Positions 28,372-53,087 of a stretch of DNA of 64,000 nt are shown piece by piece (the first letter of the stretch is position 1; each line of letters starts with the position of its first letter). This DNA is from an uncultured virus (IMG/VR IMGVR_UViG_3300028372_000001). Lineage: Duplodnaviria > Heunggongvirae > Uroviricota > Caudoviricetes. The notes beneath the pieces are model-generated. The model was not told the DNA's origin, searched no databases, and saw only the letters and a program-made list of their open reading frames with translations. The DNA lies in IMG/VR virus record IMGVR_UViG_3300028372_000001. One strand, written 5' to 3'. The position numbers were made by a program, and so were the translations under genes.

Positions 28372-28618
28372 GTGGGTGACTCCGTGGTTGGTATGGATCA
28401 AATATACCCCCCAACCCATATGCTGTCAACTCTTTTTTCAGCCGCCTACCATCAGCAGCCATTGCGGATCGAAGGGGACTTCCGGGGTTACTTCCGGTCC
28501 CTGATAACCGGGCAGTATCTTTCGGAGTCTGGACAGTGGGAATACGTTGTTCCCGTGGTAGGGTCCGCATTCACCACCATGGGATATGCAAGGGTAGCAG
28601 TGTCGCCGTGTTGCAGGC

Positions 28619-40967: not shown

Positions 40968-41585
40968 TTAAATTCCATTAGATTCAATAGTTTGATTTTC
41001 CTCTACATTTTTCTTCTTTCTCCCACCCCGTCTGCCATAATATCTTGCAGAATAACAAGTTAAAATTTTCATAATATCCTCTGCTAATTCTTCTTCATAC
41101 TTCTGTTCTTTCGCCTCAACAATCTCAACGGTTATTTCTAAGTTTTTAAAAATAGCATCAAGATATTCATACCCAAATCTTGCAAGTCTATCTTTGTACT
41201 CAATTAAAATACGTTCCACTTTACCCTCAAAGCACAACTTAATCAGTTTATGTATGCCTTTTCTTTTCTCGTTTATCCCACTTGCCATTTCATCAATCAG
41301 GATAAATTTGTAACCTTTGTTTTCAGCGTGTTTTCTAAGTCTGTCTTTTTGTCTCTCAAGGTTTTCCTTCTGCTTTGCCGTTGAACATCTCGCATATATG
41401 ACCGTTAGCTTTTCCTGTTTCTCTTTCTCAACTCCCATATAAGCGTCTAAGTCATCTTGCCTAAAACGCCTATGGCTGCCAGAAGTTTTGAAAGAGTTTA
41501 TCTTGCCCCTATTTGCAAGTGTTTTAAGCGTATTGATTGATACACCTAAATATTCGCTTGCTTTGGTTATCTTATAGATTTTCAT
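40968..41585 (-). CDS. tnpA: IS607-family serine transposase (N-terminal MerR-like HTH plus resolvase domain)
   Basis: ASEYLGVSINTL..GSHRRF; IYARCST..QK.NLERQ; ASG; YKDRLARFG; SAR.YGRR. Confidence 0.9.
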   Translation of the reverse strand: MKIYKITKASEYLGVSINTLKTLANRGKINSFKTSGSHRRFRQDDLDAYMGVEKEKQEKLTVIYARCSTAKQKENLERQKDRLRKHAENKGYKFILIDEMASGINEKRKGIHKLIKLCFEGKVERILIEYKDRLARFGYEYLDAIFKNLEITVEIVEAKEQKYEEELAEDIMKILTCYSARYYGRRGGRKKKNVEENQTIESNGI

Positions 41586-42417
41586 TAAGCAAGCCCTTAA
41601 AAATGTGTGCTATTACATCAACAGTCCACCCGTTACCAATACATTTATATCTCTGTGTTTTGTTTAATGGCAAAGTGTATGTAGGAGGCAGCGTCTGGAA
41701 TCGTTCACATTCTTCGGGAGTAGCTGATCTCGTAATGCCTTCACCACGCCGTATCTTGTCTAAAGTATTGGATTCTAAAGCAATGAGAGCCTGTTTCAAA
41801 TCAACAACAATTCTGTATTTTGTCGCTGGCGATTGTGCAGCAAGAGAAGGGTATTTCTCAAAAAACTTTATTTCGTCTGATATATATCCATGCCCCAAAC
41901 GATATAAATAATCATTAAAACAGTCTGCATCTTTGTTTACTATTTTTGGTATTGAAATATTCGTCCAATATAACCTCTCTCTGTTTTGACATGAAAACAA
42001 AGAACTGTTTATCTTAGATACACTGACTCCTATATATTCACTAATCTTTTCTGCATACTCTTTTTTCATTTTTACATTTTCAAGCAAGAAGTGTTTTGGG
42101 TTAATTTCGTTTTTTAATCTGATAAACTCAAAAAATAATCTGCTTCTTGGGTCATCAAAATTTAATTGTTTACCAGCAAAACTAAACCCTTGGCAGGGGC
42201 TTCCGCCAATCAATAAATCAATCGTTGGCAAGTCCACCCCTTTTACCTTTGTTACATCACCTATATGTTTTGTGTTTGGGTAATTGCGTTTAGTTACTTG
42301 AATTGCATATTTATCAACCTCAGACGCAAAGTAATTATCCACATCTATTCCAGCCCTCTCTAATGCTATCTGACCACAAGATATCCCATCAAATAGACTT
42401 AGTACATTTATTCCCAT
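41572..42417 (-). CDS. DNA (cytosine-5)-methyltransferase
   Basis: LSLFDGI, GGSPCQGFS, LENV, QNRERLYW, ERFQT, GNGW. Confidence 0.92.
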   Translation of the reverse strand: MGINVLSLFDGISCGQIALERAGIDVDNYFASEVDKYAIQVTKRNYPNTKHIGDVTKVKGVDLPTIDLLIGGSPCQGFSFAGKQLNFDDPRSRLFFEFIRLKNEINPKHFLLENVKMKKEYAEKISEYIGVSVSKINSSLFSCQNRERLYWTNISIPKIVNKDADCFNDYLYRLGHGYISDEIKFFEKYPSLAAQSPATKYRIVVDLKQALIALESNTLDKIRRGEGITRSATPEECERFQTLPPTYTLPLNKTQRYKCIGNGWTVDVIAHIFKGLLNENL

Positions 42418-42562
42418 CTTTCGACTCCTTAATTAACTTTTTGTTTGCATTCACAATCTTCTGCATGTCCTCAACAGATATTTCTTTTTCCAAAGTCTCA
42501 AAGAAATAAACTTTTTCATCCTCTGTCTCGAAGTACTCTTTAGTCACTTTTATTATTTTCAT
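42407..42562 (-). CDS. Small ORF (MKIIKVTKEYFETEDEKVYFFE...)
   Basis: AGGAG RBS and promoter; overlaps the MTase start. Confidence 0.5.
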
Positions 42563-42920
42563 CTTTTACTCCTATAATATACTATGTTTTTGGTTAAAAA
42601 GCAAGTGGTTTTAACCGATTTCTTTTGGTTTTGTTGGATTTTCATAAGCAGTTACAACCTCCCGGGTGCGGCCCAGGAGGCTGGTCGATTCCCGCCGCAT
42701 CGCAGCATCTCCTCAGGCGTAACTGGATGCATGAACAGTATCCGATTGCTTGCCGATTGACGTGAGACATCTGCCATTGACGGTGTGGGAGGCCCGGCCG
42801 ATCATCCAGCAGCTATTTCGGAAATCCGAGTTGAACGGACGTTCTTCTATCCAGTTGATACGGCGTACTGGTATCCAGATATCAAAGCGTCCGTACAATA
42901 TCTGTTAGCACTCCCTATAC

Positions 42921-44066
42921 TCAAAACATCTCAGCAACAGTTTCTCCAATAGCGGTTCCAAGCAAGGGAGGCACTGCGTTGCCTATTTGCTTTGTAATTT
43001 GTGTCCTGGTTCCAAAAAATTGGAAAGTATCGTCAAAAGATTGAAGCCGAGCTCCTTCTCTTGGTGTGAGTGCTCTATCTAGCACAGGATGGATGCAACG
43101 GTTTGATGCAGGATGAACAAAGTTAACGGTGATGGTTACTGCCGGATGGTCCGCATCAAGTCGGCTATAACAGCTACTAAATCCGCTAGTTATGAGATGC
43201 TTAGGAATACAGTTTATATTCTTTCCTGAATGCTTAATAATCTCAAGCATCTTATTGGAGTGAGCGGTGGCTATATGTAGCTCTAAAATTTCTGAACTTT
43301 CCCTTCTATCCTTTTGGTATTGATTCTGTGGCGGCATGGAGTATTCACTGGCAATTTCACCTGATGAAATAGGAGGAAGGTCACTTATTGCATCCATAGC
43401 AGACAATGCATCTGGTAGGATTTGCTCCTCAAATAAATCAGGTTCTCGCGGTGCAAGGATTCTAACCTTGTCCCGATAGCCAATTGTCGAGCCTTTGTAA
43501 AAATGAGTAGGAGTTGGAAATAATATCTTCCCTCCCTTTTGAACCCCAATCATGACGAACCTTTCGCGCTTTTGAGGTACACCGAAATGTGCTGCATTAA
43601 GTAGTTTCCAATCGGTTTCATACCCGATTTTTTTAAAGCAATCTTGCATTTTTTCTAGCGTTGTTCCGCCTTTGTGTGTGGCAAGCCCAACAACATTCTC
43701 TAGAATGAAAACTTTCGGCCTGAAATAATTAACGAAAGAAGCGTATTCCTCAAAAAGCGAGTTCCTGGGATCATCTTCTTTAGACGACCTAAAAGGCCTG
43801 ATGGATGAAAAGCCTTGGCAGGGAGGCCCTCCAACGAGAACATCTAACTGATCCCTTTTAACTCCCGTTATTTCCTCTACTTCGTGCCGTCTTAATTGCC
43901 GTATATCTTTACATATGCCGATTCCGGCTCGGTGGTTCAGCTTAAATGTTTCGACAGAGGCTGGAAGCACGTCAATACCGAGTTTAACATCAAAATTTGC
44001 TTGCTTGGAGTTTTCCATGCCCTTGGAAAATCCCCCGGTACCGCAAAAAAGATCAAATACTTTCAT
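42921..44066 (-). CDS. DNA (cytosine-5)-methyltransferase, bacterial R-M type
   Basis: DLFCGTGG, GGPPCQGFS, ENV, PQKRER, REGARLQSF, QIGNAVPP. Confidence 0.95.
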   Translation of the reverse strand: MKVFDLFCGTGGFSKGMENSKQANFDVKLGIDVLPASVETFKLNHRAGIGICKDIRQLRRHEVEEITGVKRDQLDVLVGGPPCQGFSSIRPFRSSKEDDPRNSLFEEYASFVNYFRPKVFILENVVGLATHKGGTTLEKMQDCFKKIGYETDWKLLNAAHFGVPQKRERFVMIGVQKGGKILFPTPTHFYKGSTIGYRDKVRILAPREPDLFEEQILPDALSAMDAISDLPPISSGEIASEYSMPPQNQYQKDRRESSEILELHIATAHSNKMLEIIKHSGKNINCIPKHLITSGFSSCYSRLDADHPAVTITVNFVHPASNRCIHPVLDRALTPREGARLQSFDDTFQFFGTRTQITKQIGNAVPPLLGTAIGETVAEMF

Positions 44067-44989: not shown

Positions 44990-46120
44990 CTACATGATAA
45001 GTTTGTCAAGAAGTTTACGACGCTCAACAAAAATTGCATCGCTGATTTCCTTGCCCTTCAGCGAAGCCTGTTGATCTTCACTGAGGTTATCGAAGCCAAC
45101 CAGTCCCGCTTGAACGACAGCAGACACCACATCATTCGCTATGTGTGCCGCGTCTTCAGAATACGTCATCCACATCATGTATTCCCATTGAATGCACAAC
45201 CGGTCTATGTTATGACTGCTGTCCAGCCTGAAGCGTTTCATGACACCCACCAGAGCATCGAGCAATTCTTCACGACCATCGGTGCGGAACGCTTTGGACA
45301 TAGCTACAGCGAACACGCATTGGTTACGCAGGATGCTCGGCATTTTGGCAGCAACGGCAAAATCGTGTACAACATCTTCGTTCCAGTCTTGGAAGATTGC
45401 CATCCACCGCACCACTTTCGAAGCATCACGGGAGCCAAGTGATCGAAGATTGCAGATAGAGTCCAATAGCACCGAAGCAACATCAGCACCGAACAGTGGC
45501 TCCAGAGCGCCAGCCTCATCGAGCACTTCAATGAAGCGATGGGGATGCGGCTCCATTATGGCATGCTGGCATTCCTTCCATACACGCTCTTTCACAAGCG
45601 AATCAAGGTCACCGTCTGCTACCATGTCCATCATGAAAGCCATCGTCTCCGGGGCAACACTGAAGTTGAAGCGAGCCGCGAATCGTGCAGCACGCAGGAC
45701 ACGCAACGGGTCTTCACGGAATGCAGGCGAAACGTGACGGATGATACCATCAGCGATATCAGCACGACCATTGAAGGGGTCGATGATCTTATCGTCCCAG
45801 CTTCGAGCGATGGCGTTCATCGTGAAGTCACGACGCACCAGATCCTCTTTCAGCGTCACATCTGGAGAGTGGTCCGTCTCGAAGCCTTTGTGACCAGAGC
45901 CAACCTTACGCTCCGTGCGGGCGAGCGCAAACTCATCACCATTTTTATCGAGGAACACGGGGAAGTCTGCACCAACATGCTGAAACCCAGCACGCAGCAT
46001 TTGCTCGGGCGTAGCATTGACTACGACGAAATCGAAATCGTGCGGCTCCCGACCCATGAGTTCGTCACGAACAGCGCCGCCGACCAGAAAGATTTTTGAG
46101 TTGTCAAGAAAGCGGCGCAC
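44990..46120 (-). CDS. cca: tRNA nucleotidyltransferase (CCA-adding enzyme, class II)
   Basis: LVGGAVRD, DFDFVV, ALARTERK, DLVRRDFTMNA, EDPLRVLRAARF, ERVWKE. Confidence 0.93.
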   Translation of the reverse strand: MRRFLDNSKIFLVGGAVRDELMGREPHDFDFVVVNATPEQMLRAGFQHVGADFPVFLDKNGDEFALARTERKVGSGHKGFETDHSPDVTLKEDLVRRDFTMNAIARSWDDKIIDPFNGRADIADGIIRHVSPAFREDPLRVLRAARFAARFNFSVAPETMAFMMDMVADGDLDSLVKERVWKECQHAIMEPHPHRFIEVLDEAGALEPLFGADVASVLLDSICNLRSLGSRDASKVVRWMAIFQDWNEDVVHDFAVAAKMPSILRNQCVFAVAMSKAFRTDGREELLDALVGVMKRFRLDSSHNIDRLCIQWEYMMWMTYSEDAAHIANDVVSAVVQAGLVGFDNLSEDQQASLKGKEISDAIFVERRKLLDKLIM

Positions 46121-49437: not shown

Positions 49438-49809
49438 ATGTCGGAGTCAACAGAGTGTAATTGTGGCCATGCCAAGCTCATGTACTACTGCCTCATGTGT
49501 CCGGTGTGTGAGATGGCACAACGGAGGATGGTTACTACCATCAATTTCATCGAGGCGATGTATAAGACCGAAGCTTTGAATGGGCTTGTGCACCGCCAAG
49601 ACAACATCTCAGATGAATTCTGGAAGCAAATCATTTATTGGGATTTGATTAAGGGTAATGACACCACGTTCCAACATGATTTCGTGGATAGGTTGATCGA
49701 AGACGACACGGTTTGGAAGTATCCGGGGGCGAAAAAATTCACGGAATTGTTCGTCAACGCCCTTGACTTGCAGCACAAAGAAAGGATCATATGGATAGTT
49801 TCGTGGTAA
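49438..49809 (+). CDS. Hypothetical Cys-rich protein
   Basis: Operonic ORF. Confidence 0.5.
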   Translation: MSESTECNCGHAKLMYYCLMCPVCEMAQRRMVTTINFIEAMYKTEALNGLVHRQDNISDEFWKQIIYWDLIKGNDTTFQHDFVDRLIEDDTVWKYPGAKKFTELFVNALDLQHKERIIWIVSW

Positions 49810-49848
49810 GAGTTGACACAAGAAGGTAGGTGATGTACAGTATCATAC

Positions 49849-49992
49849 ATAGCCTAGTGGAATTTCAAGAGTAGCGAGGTCTCGTTTAGGGTAGCTCCCA
49901 GTTCCACTAGACTATTTTATTTGAGGTTTGGTAAGTGCCCTGTAGTAACGGGGGTGCCAGTCAAAGGTCGTTGATGGGGGCACTTTGACACA
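49849..49992 (+). ncRNA. Two structured RNA hairpin domains after a sigma70 promoter
   Basis: TTGACA-N17-TACAGT at 49813-49841; stems ctagtggaa/ttccactag and aagtgccc/gggcactt. Confidence 0.45.
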
Positions 49993-50000
49993 AGTTCATT

Positions 50001-50189
50001 GAACCGGTAGTTTATATTCTCCTAGACCAACGGGAGACGAAGGGGCCAAGCTAGCTCCGGGCTGTTTAAAACACACCTTGACTGTAGCGGTGAAGGTTTG
50101 ATTAAGGATACGTCGGTGATCCTTAGCACATGGGGATGCGCCAGTTGGCCCCATGAAGTGAAGAGGTTAGAAGCCTTTCCGGTTCGCCA
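50001..50189 (+). ncRNA. 189-nt enlarged tRNA-like RNA
   Basis: Acceptor GAACCGG/CCGGTTC-G-CCA; T-arm agagg-ttagaag-ccttt; extra hairpins in the D and variable regions. Confidence 0.7.
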
Positions 50190-50233
50190 ATTTAAGTGTT
50201 GACATGAGTCGATTAACCGTCTACACTGTGCAG

Positions 50234-50920
50234 CATGAGTTAGGGAGTTGCGTCCCTTAATGATGTGAGTACTCTCACGAAAGAGAGGGAGGCAGCCGGA
50301 TCGACGGTAGCGAAGCATCAGACTCTATCCGAGGTGGCCTCCATAAGAGTGGGGGAGATTCAAAGGCCGAGGTCGGGAGGCGCTTTGGAACGATAAGAGT
50401 GGGTGAGTCACTCGCCCGAAACAAGGAAAGCCTGATTATGCTTCGGCCTTAAATGGTTCAAGACAAAGGGATTGCCAGTGACAATATAATTAAAGGGCAG
50501 TAAAGGTTGGCAGTTTTCTACGATAAACTGCCTTTGGTGAGGTGCTAGAAAGGACCGGCCCCGTCACCGCGATAACAGGTCCACCAAAATGTGTTTAAAG
50601 TAATTAATGTGGGATAGCAGTAGACCCACCCCCTGAAACTAGGGTTAATAAATACTGTCGATAACTTTGCCCCGTGAAGCGTCGCCTTTTGGGTTGGATG
50701 GCTAAACCCAAATGAGTTACCGGACTCTAAAACCGGATAGAGGTGTCTGGTTGCCTCGAAAATATGAGCCAGATAGGCGGAGGTGTGAAGGCGACCGTAC
50801 ATCAAAGCTGAATCTAATTTTAGCGGAGCCCTTTGTAGTTGGGTGGTTAAACTACCATAATTAGTAGCCGGGAGCGTCACGTCCCCACCTGAGCGGCTAA
50901 AACCGCAACGTGACCGAATT
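50234..50920 (+). ncRNA. Large structured ncRNA of about 690 nt (GOLLD/ROOL-like size class)
   Basis: Own TTGACA-N17-TACACT promoter; no credible ORF; many hairpins and long-range helices. Confidence 0.65.
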
Positions 50921-50936
50921 GAGTGTTGACTAAGCT

Positions 50937-51092
50937 ATGGAACCAACTGATAAGCAAATCAAAGAACATATGGAGTCAACTGGTTTAAATTTTTATAATG
51001 CCAGAGAAGAACTCCGTGAAATGGAATATAAAGACGAACACCCCGACAAACCAAGCGATATGAGTTGGGGCGATTATTGGAAAACATATTAA
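50937..51092 (+). CDS. 51-aa hypothetical protein (MEPTDKQIKEHM...)
   Basis: Short AT-rich ORF filling the gap between RNAs; not in the ORF track. Confidence 0.45.
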   Translation: MEPTDKQIKEHMESTGLNFYNAREELREMEYKDEHPDKPSDMSWGDYWKTY

Positions 51093-51101
51093 CAAGGTTA
51101 T

Positions 51102-51222
51102 CGAGAGTGTACGAAAAGCAGCATAGTAGAATAGCTATTCTCTATGCTCTGGCAACCCGGCGGCACTTGAAAGCCGTGCTCTTAGCGGAGCTTGTAGGTT
51201 CGATCCCTACCACTCTCGACCA
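51102..51222 (+). tRNA. Atypical tRNA-Ser(UGA)-like RNA with an 8-bp acceptor and a hairpin inserted in the D-loop
   Basis: cgagagtg/cactctcg-A-CCA; T-arm gtagg-ttcgatc-cctac; long variable arm; anticodon region acttgaaa. Confidence 0.7.
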
Positions 51223-51289
51223 ATTTCCCTTGACAACCATTCAATAATCCCTTATAATTTATAAATTATAAGCAGGAGACACCCCCCCA

Positions 51290-52432
51290 ATGAACGAACT
51301 TCAAACAACTTTGTACTCGAACCTCATGGCGTTGTGTGATGGGGATGAGGCGTTCTTCTATTCGGATCAAGTGTTGACCCCGAAGACCCGTCCGGGTCAT
51401 TTTCGCATCTTCAACTATCGTCTGGCATCCTATACCCAGTGGCTCCATCCCGGTGCTCTGGAGTGCCGTGGCGTGATGTTCCTCATGGACTCGGAATTCA
51501 AGAATCCGATGTCTCTGATGTCGTGGCCGTTCGAGAAGTTCTTCAACCTCAACGAGAACCCAATGACCATGGGCCTCGATATGAATGATGTTCGCTCGAT
51601 TCAAGCAAAGATGGACGGTTCGCTCATCAGCACGTTCTACTTCGATGGTCATGTTCGAGTCAAGTCGAAGGGATCACTACATTCGGATCAGGCAGTAGCT
51701 GCACAAAGATTGCTTGAATCACCGAAGTGGGATGCACTGTACAACGCATTGGAACAACATGTAATGTTTATGGATCACACTGTCATCATGGAGTACACTG
51801 CTCCTGATAACCGTATCGTGGTTCCGACAGAAGAGCCGACTCTTACTGTGCTTGCGGTTCGAGACAACCGTACTGGTAAATACGTGGGTGATCTTCACGG
51901 GTATATGGTAGAGTACATGACTGACGAAATTATCAACGATGTTGGTGAGGATATTCCGGCGTTCATCGAGGACATTCCGAAAATGACCGGCATCGAGGGG
52001 TTTGTGCTGACCATGGCATCAGGCCAGCGTGTGAAGATCAAGACTGATTGGTACGCGGCACTACATCACTTGAAGGACTCAATCAACTCTCAGCGTCGGC
52101 TGTTCGAGTGTGCAGTGAACGATGCAACTGATGACCTCAAGGCTCAGTTCTGGGATGATTTGCAAGCTGTCGCAATGATCAACCACATGGAAGCCAAGGT
52201 GGCATCCATATACAATCACATGGTGGATCAGGTAGAACGGTTCTACCAGCGGAACAAGCACATGGAGCGTAAGGACTTCGCTATCAAGGGGCAGGCTGAA
52301 CTTGACAAACTGTGCTTCGGGCTGGTGATGGCTAAGTATTCCGGTAAGGAAGTGGACTACAAGGCTACGCTCATCAAGCACCGTAAAAACTTCGGGATCA
52401 AGGATGATCCTGAAATGGGAGCAGAACAATGA
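51290..52432 (+). CDS. rnlA: T4 Rnl1-like RNA ligase
   Basis: IFNYRLASY, ECRG.MF, EKFFNLNEN, KMDGSL, EY.AP.NRIV, IEGFV, KIKTDWY. Confidence 0.92.
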   Translation: MNELQTTLYSNLMALCDGDEAFFYSDQVLTPKTRPGHFRIFNYRLASYTQWLHPGALECRGVMFLMDSEFKNPMSLMSWPFEKFFNLNENPMTMGLDMNDVRSIQAKMDGSLISTFYFDGHVRVKSKGSLHSDQAVAAQRLLESPKWDALYNALEQHVMFMDHTVIMEYTAPDNRIVVPTEEPTLTVLAVRDNRTGKYVGDLHGYMVEYMTDEIINDVGEDIPAFIEDIPKMTGIEGFVLTMASGQRVKIKTDWYAALHHLKDSINSQRRLFECAVNDATDDLKAQFWDDLQAVAMINHMEAKVASIYNHMVDQVERFYQRNKHMERKDFAIKGQAELDKLCFGLVMAKYSGKEVDYKATLIKHRKNFGIKDDPEMGAEQ

Positions 52433-52769
52433 TGAAACGTAAAGGCCACCGCAGTGATCGGGAGAAACTGCTTGATCAAGTGTTTAACCATCTGAAAGGT
52501 ATTGGGGTGTGGCGTGGCGACGAGTTTCATAGTTTTTGTAAGTGGGCAAAGGGTAAACCCAGTGATGAACTCAAACGCGAAATGGAGTATTGACACTCCC
52601 ACACCATAGCGATACAATGATCATCCACTCACCAATGGCTGCATCGGGTGATCCTGCAACGGATATCCCACACCCACCGCTTGATGCCAGCAGTTCTATC
52701 TCCGAGAACGAAGAAAAGGGTTGCAACAACCCTTTTCTTTGTGTATAATTCCTTATAATTTATGGGAGG

Positions 52770-53087
52770 TTGAATATGAACAAGGGGCTGCACGTACTTA
52801 TCGATGATATGCGGACGTTGGATGTGGATATCATTTCCCGTAATGGTCAGGTTGCTATGCGCCTCATGGAAGAAGGTGAAGTCAGCCACCTCTACATGGA
52901 CAATGACCTCGGTGAGAACGTTTCCATGGAAGGTATTGACATCCTCAAGTGGGCGAGGGATAATAAAGTCATGCCCCCCAACGTAACGATTGTGTCGGCA
53001 AATATCGTGTGTCGAAAGCGAATGGAAGACCTTTTGCGCTTCGACATGGAATACATTCAGGATGGCAATTGGTGGAGAAAGCATTGA
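52770..53087 (+). CDS. Cyclic-phosphate-processing receiver-like domain
   Basis: LIDDMR...LYMDNDLG....GIDILKW...IVSAN. Confidence 0.65.
   Translation: MNMNKGLHVLIDDMRTLDVDIISRNGQVAMRLMEEGEVSHLYMDNDLGENVSMEGIDILKWARDNKVMPPNVTIVSANIVCRKRMEDLLRFDMEYIQDGNWWRKH

Follow-up and report, generated by a model that had tools for sequence, protein, structure and literature searches.

A 64,000-nt stretch of DNA from an uncultured virus of the Caudoviricetes (IMG/VR record IMGVR_UViG_3300028372_000001), hereafter referred to as the window, carries an island of about 1.45 kb with little recognisable protein-coding sequence directly upstream of rnl1, the gene for a T4-type RNA ligase 1 (Rnl1). What does this island encode, and does it belong with the RNA-repair genes that follow it? 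The island is probably an accessory array of promoter-bounded non-coding RNA cassettes, functional and belonging to a new family, albeit on thin support; its transcription and processing, and any role in defence, are predictions that follow from the features described below.

Non-coding character and promoters of the island

Homologues of Rnl1 number 1217 at E<=1e-30, the nearest of which are 100%, 76%, 69% and 63% identical. The loci compared in the present analysis are L097-L099, which belong to the same phage, the partial contig L104, the Rnl1 of which is 71% identical over its 89 available residues (rnl1 coding DNA, 75%), and the more distant L100-L102 and L107 (54-58%). Homologue searches with nhmmer (96 + 28 + 7 + 30 loci) recovered the island only in L097-L099 and L104, and the comparison with L104, the sole relative with the island, carries most of the evidence on its nature. 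The features of the island are as follows.

49813-49841 (+): promoter P1, TTGACA-N17-TACAGT, which precedes small RNA S
49848-49921 (+): candidate small RNA S (about 70 nt), an outer stem around the conserved core 49862-49910, then a U-rich tail
49921-50198 (+): unsupported stretch with a hairpin, a weak promoter match and a claimed second tRNA mimic; no homologue in L104
49985-50013 (+): weak promoter match, by pattern
50199-50227 (+): promoter P3, TTGACA-N17-TACACT, of the putative large RNA
50234-50400 (+): 5' domain of the large RNA, 77% of alignment columns (84% ungapped) identical to L104 1053-1226
50298-50909: segment replaced by about 900 nt in the alternative allele (L098 type)
50395-50500 (+): M module of the large RNA, 70% identical to L104
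50500-50690 (+): variable middle of the large RNA, 290 nt here versus 166 nt in L104
50690-50916 (+): 3' domain of the large RNA, 66% of alignment columns identical to L104
50937-51092 (+): 51-amino-acid (aa) open reading frame (ORF), which matches the last 50 positions of phrog_23875 (E 7e-12)
51102-51222 (+): putative tRNA-derived, CCA-ended RNA (about 120 nt), predicted fold -46.7 kcal/mol, z-score -4.1
51230-51258 (+): rnl1 promoter, TTGACA-N17-TATAAT (12 of 12), near-identical in L104

No protein frame of 49813-51290 is conserved in L104. The 52 stop-to-stop pieces of the island yielded no conserved translation longer than 29 aa, identical DNA blocks match L104 in multiple frames and on both strands, and the indels of the conserved blocks (1-5 nt) are not multiples of three, so that a conserved protein frame is excluded. 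The initial annotation had credited the region with only one ORF, that of 51 aa. Taken literally this does not hold, as mechanical ORFs of 43-111 aa occur on both strands, the longest (111 aa) at 50545-50880 on the minus strand; nevertheless, no mechanical ORF of the island matches Pfam, and the 51-aa ORF alone is supported, by phrog_23875. In other samples it is shortened to 41 aa by a 1-nt deletion at 51041. An 82-aa ORF over the tRNA-like element in L098, which exists only via a 1-nt deletion and has no family match, was read as spurious.

The pattern TTGACA-N16-18-TANNNT was counted over the window and matched 35 times, as against 1.9 matches expected by chance for the whole of it. Four of these matches lie inside the 1.45 kb of the island (at 49813, 49985, 50199 and 51230), in agreement with the earlier claim of at least two sigma70 promoters. 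Both the -35 and the -10 elements of P3 are conserved in L104, while the spacer between them has diverged.

The region might instead hold overlooked genes for small proteins, or act as a long 5' leader that regulates the 51-aa ORF and rnl1. Besides the mechanical ORFs, this explanation could draw on the alternative allele, in which the same promoter and the first ~65 nt run into a protein gene with a GGAGG site, and on the lack of a plus-strand terminator in the window between the large RNA and the downstream genes up to rnl1, by which the island could in part be a long leader. It is opposed by the absence of a frame conserved with L104, by indels that are not multiples of three and by the lack of Pfam matches; moreover, what comes after the 3' domain in L104 is not an ORF but RNA S, then a hairpin, a tRNA and finally a terminator. 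Such an explanation is considered very improbable.

Structure and conservation of the candidate RNAs

The island of L104 is a 1.2-kb ORF-poor region directly upstream of a 79-aa ORF and rnl1, with its blocks in a different order. A putatively promoter-driven RNA A, separate from and upstream of RNA B, contains the M module of the window in its 3' part, and RNA B, likewise preceded by a promoter, has 5' and 3' domains that correspond to those of the large RNA. The 3' domain of RNA B is followed by the core of S and by a long hairpin; next is a tRNA of 77 nt, the last element of the array just before the rnl1 promoter, which is near-identical to that of the window and has a terminator ahead of it. 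Upstream of their islands the two phages have unrelated ORFs (21% amino-acid identity). Within the 5' domain, the indels between the two phages are of 1-3 nt.

The fold of small RNA S has a z-score of -2.6, with four of 200 shuffles as stable, and its core recurs at L104 1655-1706 with three outer-stem pairs changed on both sides. When RNAalifold was applied to the two sequences, 42 pairs were predicted in the 5' domain of the large RNA (4 changed on both sides), 41 in the 3' domain (7 changed on both sides) and 11 in S (4 changed on both sides), and none was broken. Since such a structure is fitted to the same data, a more independent test was run, in which the minimum free energy (MFE) fold of one sequence was evaluated against the second; controls were made by sliding the partner by 1-3 columns. 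In the last ~90 nt of the 3' domain (50826-50916), which are 89% identical to L104 in a MAFFT alignment, all four changed pairs were kept, as against 8 of 32 in the slid controls. These comparisons make the structural case for the large RNA suggestive and not established, and it is clear only in the 3' terminal domain.

Inside the large RNA, two copies of AUAAGAGUGGG(G/U)GAG are found 50 nt apart at 50343-50407, and the L104 RNAs A and B contain three or four similar unit starts; the large RNA may be built of repeated hairpin units of ~50 nt. The possibility that these repeat modules are decayed tRNAs was tried with seven tRNA or tRNA-like sequences against three RNA targets and rejected, the alignments being no better than those of shuffles; the score of the best of the 21 local alignments was reached in 4 of 200 shuffles, which is not significant over 21 tests. 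Also dropped was a T-box-like 'GGGUGGU' in the 3' domain, since the base presumed to pair with the discriminator shows no covariation between the two phages and no Rfam T-box match was found.

The fold of the tRNA-derived candidate at 51102-51222 was equalled in stability by none of 200 shuffles. Its MFE fold comprises an acceptor stem of 8 bp (or 9), giving an acceptor/T branch of 8/5 or 9/5, a 14-bp hairpin with a 4-nt loop at the D position, an anticodon stem of 5 bp that closes the 8-nt loop ACUUGAAA, a long variable arm (5 bp, 4-nt loop) and a canonical T arm, GUAGG-UUCGAUC-CCUAC, which abuts the acceptor stem's 3' strand and is followed by an encoded A-CCA. By the usual U33/purine-37 convention, the last seven bases of ACUUGAAA would resemble the loop of a UGA-anticodon tRNA. 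A canonical T arm and a 3' CCA are thus present, and the 3' part weakly resembles the 3' ends of phage tRNA genes; the 7-nt anticodon loop of a canonical tRNA is absent, and the element is called neither by ARAGORN nor by Rfam RF00005 (>=29 bits). A C>T polymorphism at 51140 turns a G-C pair of the D hairpin into G-U. On account of the 8-base anticodon loop and the 14-pair D hairpin, the RNA is predicted to be a non-decoder. The parts read by RNase P, the CCA enzyme and other binders of the acceptor/T branch are retained, which would suit a handle for maturation or stability. The element is most likely a processing and stability handle that would yield a stable, CCA-ended, non-translating surrogate of a tRNA. 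As a natural example of an architecture with an 8/5 branch, a long D hairpin and an 8-base loop, it adds to those on record.

Of the two enlarged tRNA mimics claimed initially, this one was upheld, while the other (~50020-50165) was rejected: its z-score is -1.1, 24 of 200 shuffles are as stable and it has no homologue. The hairpin at 49921-49985 (z-score -1.5) is also no better than shuffles and without a homologue, and a low-depth relative skips 50104-50184. The element at 51102-51222 itself could not be aligned with L104 1700-1830. The tRNA of L104 (1822-1898) reaches 45.9 bits with the Rfam tRNA model; its nearest matches are phage tRNA-Thr genes, and its anticodon loop, GCGUCA, is of 6 bases. 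Its acceptor stem includes a G3:U70 pair, and it could owe its loop to an assembly indel or be a genuine non-decoding tRNA.

The island was assigned to no known RNA family. An Infernal search of 49700-51400 against Rfam 15, including tRNA, tRNA-Sec, tmRNA, Y RNA/YrlA, GOLLD, ROOL, RNase P, 6S and T-box, gave no match at E<=10, and at the gathering score only ordinary tRNAs were found in the whole window. ARAGORN called no tRNA or tmRNA in the island; tmRNA was absent from its calls on window and island alike, lowered thresholds included. Taken together, the Rfam and ARAGORN results indicate that this is not a known family. With introns allowed and thresholds lowered, ARAGORN returned implausible calls only, such as a 'tRNA-Gln' with a 1187-nt intron (49949-51222), which was rejected because neither a D arm nor an anticodon arm is convincing in its 5' half and because it appears only at a 90% threshold. 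On L104 780-2040 only the tRNA model of Rfam passes, two other matches being at chance level.

Searches for further relatives were similarly restricted in outcome. With blastn against 50,697 phage records, the window island had no match and the L104 island matched tRNA-Thr genes only. Exact-motif scans of IMG/VR gave 7 and 30 matches, chance-like on inspection, and the three genome matches of a scan of GTDB genomes were ruled out with covariance model R1. Covariance models R1 and R2, run on 41 sources and on the whole genomes of the phages Xoo-sp13 and RAS14, found nothing beyond the input lineages; R2, which represents S, matches only the lineage of the window and L104.

Exchange of cassettes in the population

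Contigs of four sequencing runs (X5, X8, X12 and X13) were placed on the locus, and these show that it is polymorphic. In the alternative allele, most of the large RNA is replaced; contigs that bridge the swap were found in two runs only, X5 and X8, while in X12 and X13 the left junction of the replacement was seen as loose ends. In L098 the replacement (800-1700) encodes 110 aa in an ORF of no family, served by a GGAGG ribosome-binding site, and further contains a strong terminator, two direct repeats of ~20 nt and a gene for an AlpA-like helix-turn-helix (HTH) protein of 63 aa; the cassette takes the promoter of the large RNA and its first ~65 nt as a leader. An insertion of the ISL3 family, encoding a 436-aa transposase and a 270-aa ORF, is present at 51254/51261 in L099 and in run X5. 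The copy in L099 (654-2773) lies between the tRNA-like RNA and the rnl1 promoter, with a Pfam match of 1.6e-64 for the transposase and no family for the 270-aa ORF; the insertion is carried by a deep X5 contig, in what looks like a lytic jumbo phage. Direct repeats of 17 nt, which include the -35 element, flank the large-RNA cassette. The swap, the insertion, the deletion and the flanking repeats together point to a hot spot for the exchange of promoter-bounded cassettes. The coexistence of alleles with and without the large RNA in one population offers, if a host is found, a ready-made comparison by which to learn the roles of a large phage RNA and of a non-decoding tRNA surrogate.

Our full best explanation, to which an even chance is given, sees the island as an accessory set of non-coding RNA cassettes, arrayed in the genome of an uncultured jumbo phage. 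Promoters of the host (sigma70-like) type would give rise to the ~70-nt S and a modular RNA of ~690 nt, with the 120-nt tRNA-derived RNA as a third product further along the same strand. The cassettes travel together with rnl1 and with the gene for a cyclic-phosphate processing receiver (cRec) domain protein downstream of it; they have been reordered and exchanged at conserved promoters, and the phage can do without them. Such a pattern fits an accessory module for conflict that would be directed at damage to tRNA or RNA, and not a core function.

Several further observations weigh against this explanation. Over the whole 5' and 3' domains, changed pairs were kept no oftener than in the slid controls of the independent test, and the covariation rests on only two independent sequences. 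The z-score of the large RNA is -3.0 on the plus strand and already -2.25 on the minus strand (20 shuffles each), and that of RNA B of L104 is -0.7, no better than shuffles. In X5 the replacement has a depth of 35.7 versus 9.0 for the kept sequence, and in X8 the depths are 8.4 versus ~2; contigs in which the replacement is the deeper allele imply that the large RNA is dispensable and the island accessory. The Rnl1 relatives at 54-58% identity are without the island, L100 and L102 having small ORFs upstream of rnl1, and in Xoo-sp13 and RAS14 rIIA-rIIB lie upstream of rnl1 and the island is matched neither by DNA searches nor by covariance models. The 24 runs listed for the locus DNA include none of RNA, which says nothing either way on expression.

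The initial annotation is borne out in part, in its observations as well as in its interpretation, and its propositions are narrowed. For the 690-nt RNA, the blocks and the promoter are conserved in L104, but the RNA is modular, possibly more than one RNA, and its z-scores are modest. In the independent test, covariation between the two homologues is found in the last 90 nt but neither in the 5' domain nor in the 3' domain as a whole. Linkage to rnl1 holds in the lineage of the window and in L104, and fails in the more distant relatives, Xoo-sp13 and RAS14 among them. A dedicated RNA module remains in the form of a promoter-driven non-coding block conserved upstream of rnl1, even though the large RNA is replaced in the deeper contigs.

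Much of the above could also be expected if the island consisted of relics in a recombination hot spot, that is, of decaying tRNA genes and leftover leader or intergenic DNA between cassettes, with no RNA function. Wrong-size anticodon loops and a disrupted D arm are typical of pseudo-tRNAs, one population carries the cassette swap, the ISL3 insertion and the frameshift of the 51-aa ORF, and the thermodynamic and covariation signals are weak across most of the large RNA. Relics would, however, not be expected to include RNA blocks conserved as much as or more than the rnl1 coding DNA where the flanking upstream genes are unrelated, promoter hexamers that are kept while the spacer drifts, or two-sided changes in several hairpins. 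The conservation of blocks and promoters, as judged from two sequences, weakens the idea of relics, which is regarded as unlikely.

RNA-repair neighbours and known systems

The genes adjoining or near the island that bear on its putative role are the following.

51290-52432 (+): Rnl1, T4-type RNA ligase 1 (PF09511 6.5e-22, PF20819 1.7e-19)
52770-53087 (+): cRec domain protein (PF20274 6.4e-15)
44990-46120 (-): nucleotidyltransferase of the CCA-adding/poly(A) polymerase family (PF01743 8.4e-22)

Rnl1 carries both Pfam domains of T4 Rnl1, namely the nucleotidyltransferase with the KxDG lysine motif and the Rnl1-specific C-terminal domain, and within its motif K107-M-D-G110 the residues K107, D109 and G110 are invariant across 16 sequences. 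The cRec gene lies 338 nt downstream of rnl1 and scores 56 bits against a PF20274 cut-off of 27, and the gene of CCA-enzyme type is 3.7 kb from the island; Pfam thus confirmed an RNA ligase and a receiver-like gene right after the island, as well as a cca gene placed about 4 kb away by the initial annotation. No Pnkp-type kinase, HAD phosphatase or other end-healing phosphatase was found among the 91 ORFs of the window scanned with Pfam, and the pairing of Pnkp with Rnl1 for healing-and-sealing repair was not found within the 64 kb searched; the window has two Metallophos genes, at distances of 10 and 36 kb. The scanned ORFs include no match to the TROVE domain and the island no match to Y RNA, so that a Ro/Y-RNA (Rsr-YrlA) module was not recovered either.

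The window DNA was found in lake-water and salt-lake metagenomes and belongs to an uncultured giant or jumbo phage, with numerous small genes and five ordinary tRNAs in the 64 kb. By protein similarity, the closest named relatives are the jumbo phages Xoo-sp13 and XacN1 of Xanthomonas and RAS14 and CM1 of Stenotrophomonas, to which Rnl1 is 41-44% and a GP88-family protein ~60% identical. Between 28000 and 38000 on the minus strand, the GC content of the window is 0.52-0.58, as compared to ~0.43 elsewhere, and long ORFs are scarce; seven near-identical promoter-like repeats (at 28401, 30413, 35056, 36122, 36736, 37074 and 37487), which read TTGACA, a G-rich spacer and GTATATT, occur there, and the stretch is possibly a further array of small cassettes or RNAs. 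At 40968-44066, also on the minus strand, a serine-recombinase gene (resolvase + HTH) precedes a pair of genes for C5 cytosine methylases, of which one is apparently truncated or split (281 aa versus 381 aa).

The neighbourhood of the island is compatible with the decoys proposed in the initial annotation: host anticodon nucleases or tRNA-sensing defences would be bound by the tRNA-derived RNAs, perhaps also by the large RNA, or would spend their cleavage on them, with Rnl1, cRec and the CCA enzyme re-sealing and re-tailing the decoys or host tRNAs. In each of the two phages, the element directly before rnl1 is a tRNA in which the acceptor/T branch is normal and the anticodon loop is not, with 8 nt in the window and 6 nt in L104. 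Counter-defence genes are abundant in the window (an ArdC-like gene, two C5 DNA methylases and an ART domain). The linkage of cRec with RNA ligase is that described for jumbo-phage RNA repair (PMC7824862, in part), and phage tRNAs with altered loops have been proposed to evade tRNA-targeting defences (PMC10264068, PMC11464382 and PMC11555353, each in part). Against such a role, it is a candidate without a nuclease, a target or a cleavage site, no polynucleotide kinase or end-healing phosphatase accompanies the ligase among the scanned ORFs, the linkage comes from two lineages while at the more distant Rnl1 loci the upstream position is taken by rIIA-rIIB or small ORFs, and none of the seven tRNA or tRNA-like sequences is significantly similar to the large RNA. 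Decoys coupled to repair are therefore held to be possible but doubtful. Quite unlikely is the bolder proposal of a new counter-defence kit of jumbo phages that works through RNA and is inherited with Rnl1 and cRec. Its components would be the ~690-nt RNA, S and the misshapen tRNA with its CCA end; host nucleases directed at tRNA would be absorbed or sensed by the non-decoding tRNA surrogates and by the large RNA as a scaffold, and the adjacent ligase would re-seal these RNAs. If this were true, the large RNA would belong to a new class of ornate RNAs in phages, with a function open to testing.

By its predicted fold, with a 13-bp acceptor/T branch in 8/5 arrangement, a long variable arm and a 4-base D loop, the element at 51102-51222 recalls bacterial tRNA-Sec and irregular tRNAs of the allo-tRNA type. 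Bacterial tRNA-Sec is recognised by an 8/5 branch, by a variable arm that is long and by a D stem of 6 bp closed by a 4-nt loop (PMC7609411, in part), and irregular class II tRNAs occur in polycistrons and have extra loops between the acceptor and D stems (PMC7609411 and PMC5389517, both in part). The D hairpin here is of 14 pairs and not 6, the 8-base loop carries UGA and not UCA, no Rfam tRNA-Sec or ARAGORN call was obtained and no Sec machinery was seen in the window. The anticodon, the D stem's length and the absence of a model match exclude membership of the tRNA-Sec/allo-tRNA group. The position of the tRNA-like element, on the strand of a long non-coding RNA and downstream of it, and the restriction of its canonical parts to the acceptor/T branch also recall MALAT1-mascRNA, in which the 3' end of the long non-coding RNA is made by RNase P at the downstream tRNA-like structure (PMC8457004, in part). 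That system is eukaryotic and nuclear and serves as an analogy only, and in the window a 51-aa ORF stands between the RNA and the tRNA-like element. The defence-escaping phage tRNAs similarly have their differences concentrated in the anticodon loop (PMC10264068, PMC11464382 and PMC11555353, in part), yet they are functional and have 7-base loops, while the 8- and 6-base loops found here would be expected to decode abnormally.

At the level of the whole locus, two further systems are pertinent. The tRNA region of phage T4 includes two stable RNAs (species 1 and 2, or RNA C/D), and T4 repairs tRNA with Pnkp and Rnl1 against PrrC. The present locus resembles it in having stable-RNA candidates among or beside tRNA-type genes, a T4-type Rnl1 (identity of 42-46% to those of named phages, T4-like Klebsiella phages among them) and a tRNA-type element with an encoded CCA. 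It differs in that the island has no blastn match among the phage records, in that cRec and not Pnkp lies beside Rnl1 in the window, and in the size of the main RNA, which at ~690 nt is far above that of the T4 species. GOLLD and ROOL lie adjacent to tRNA-type genes, and the large RNA of the window would likewise be a large (0.6-0.7 kb) orphan phage RNA adjoining such genes. The host range and the sequence are unrelated, neither island matches the family consensus in Rfam at E<=10, multimer formation is known for GOLLD and ROOL, and the covariation support is far thinner here. Both are described as large ornate RNAs (10.1101/2024.12.08.627333 and PMC5737381, in part).

The comparison suggests that the kind of element is already known, as phage-encoded orphan structured RNAs and tRNA-like RNAs, and that what is new is this family of cassettes. 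To our knowledge, the orphan RNAs that phages carry by their tRNA genes, such as the T4 stable RNAs, GOLLD and ROOL, have had no assigned function for decades; in the present phage, such candidate RNAs sit in a compact, promoter-defined cassette array tied to RNA-repair genes.

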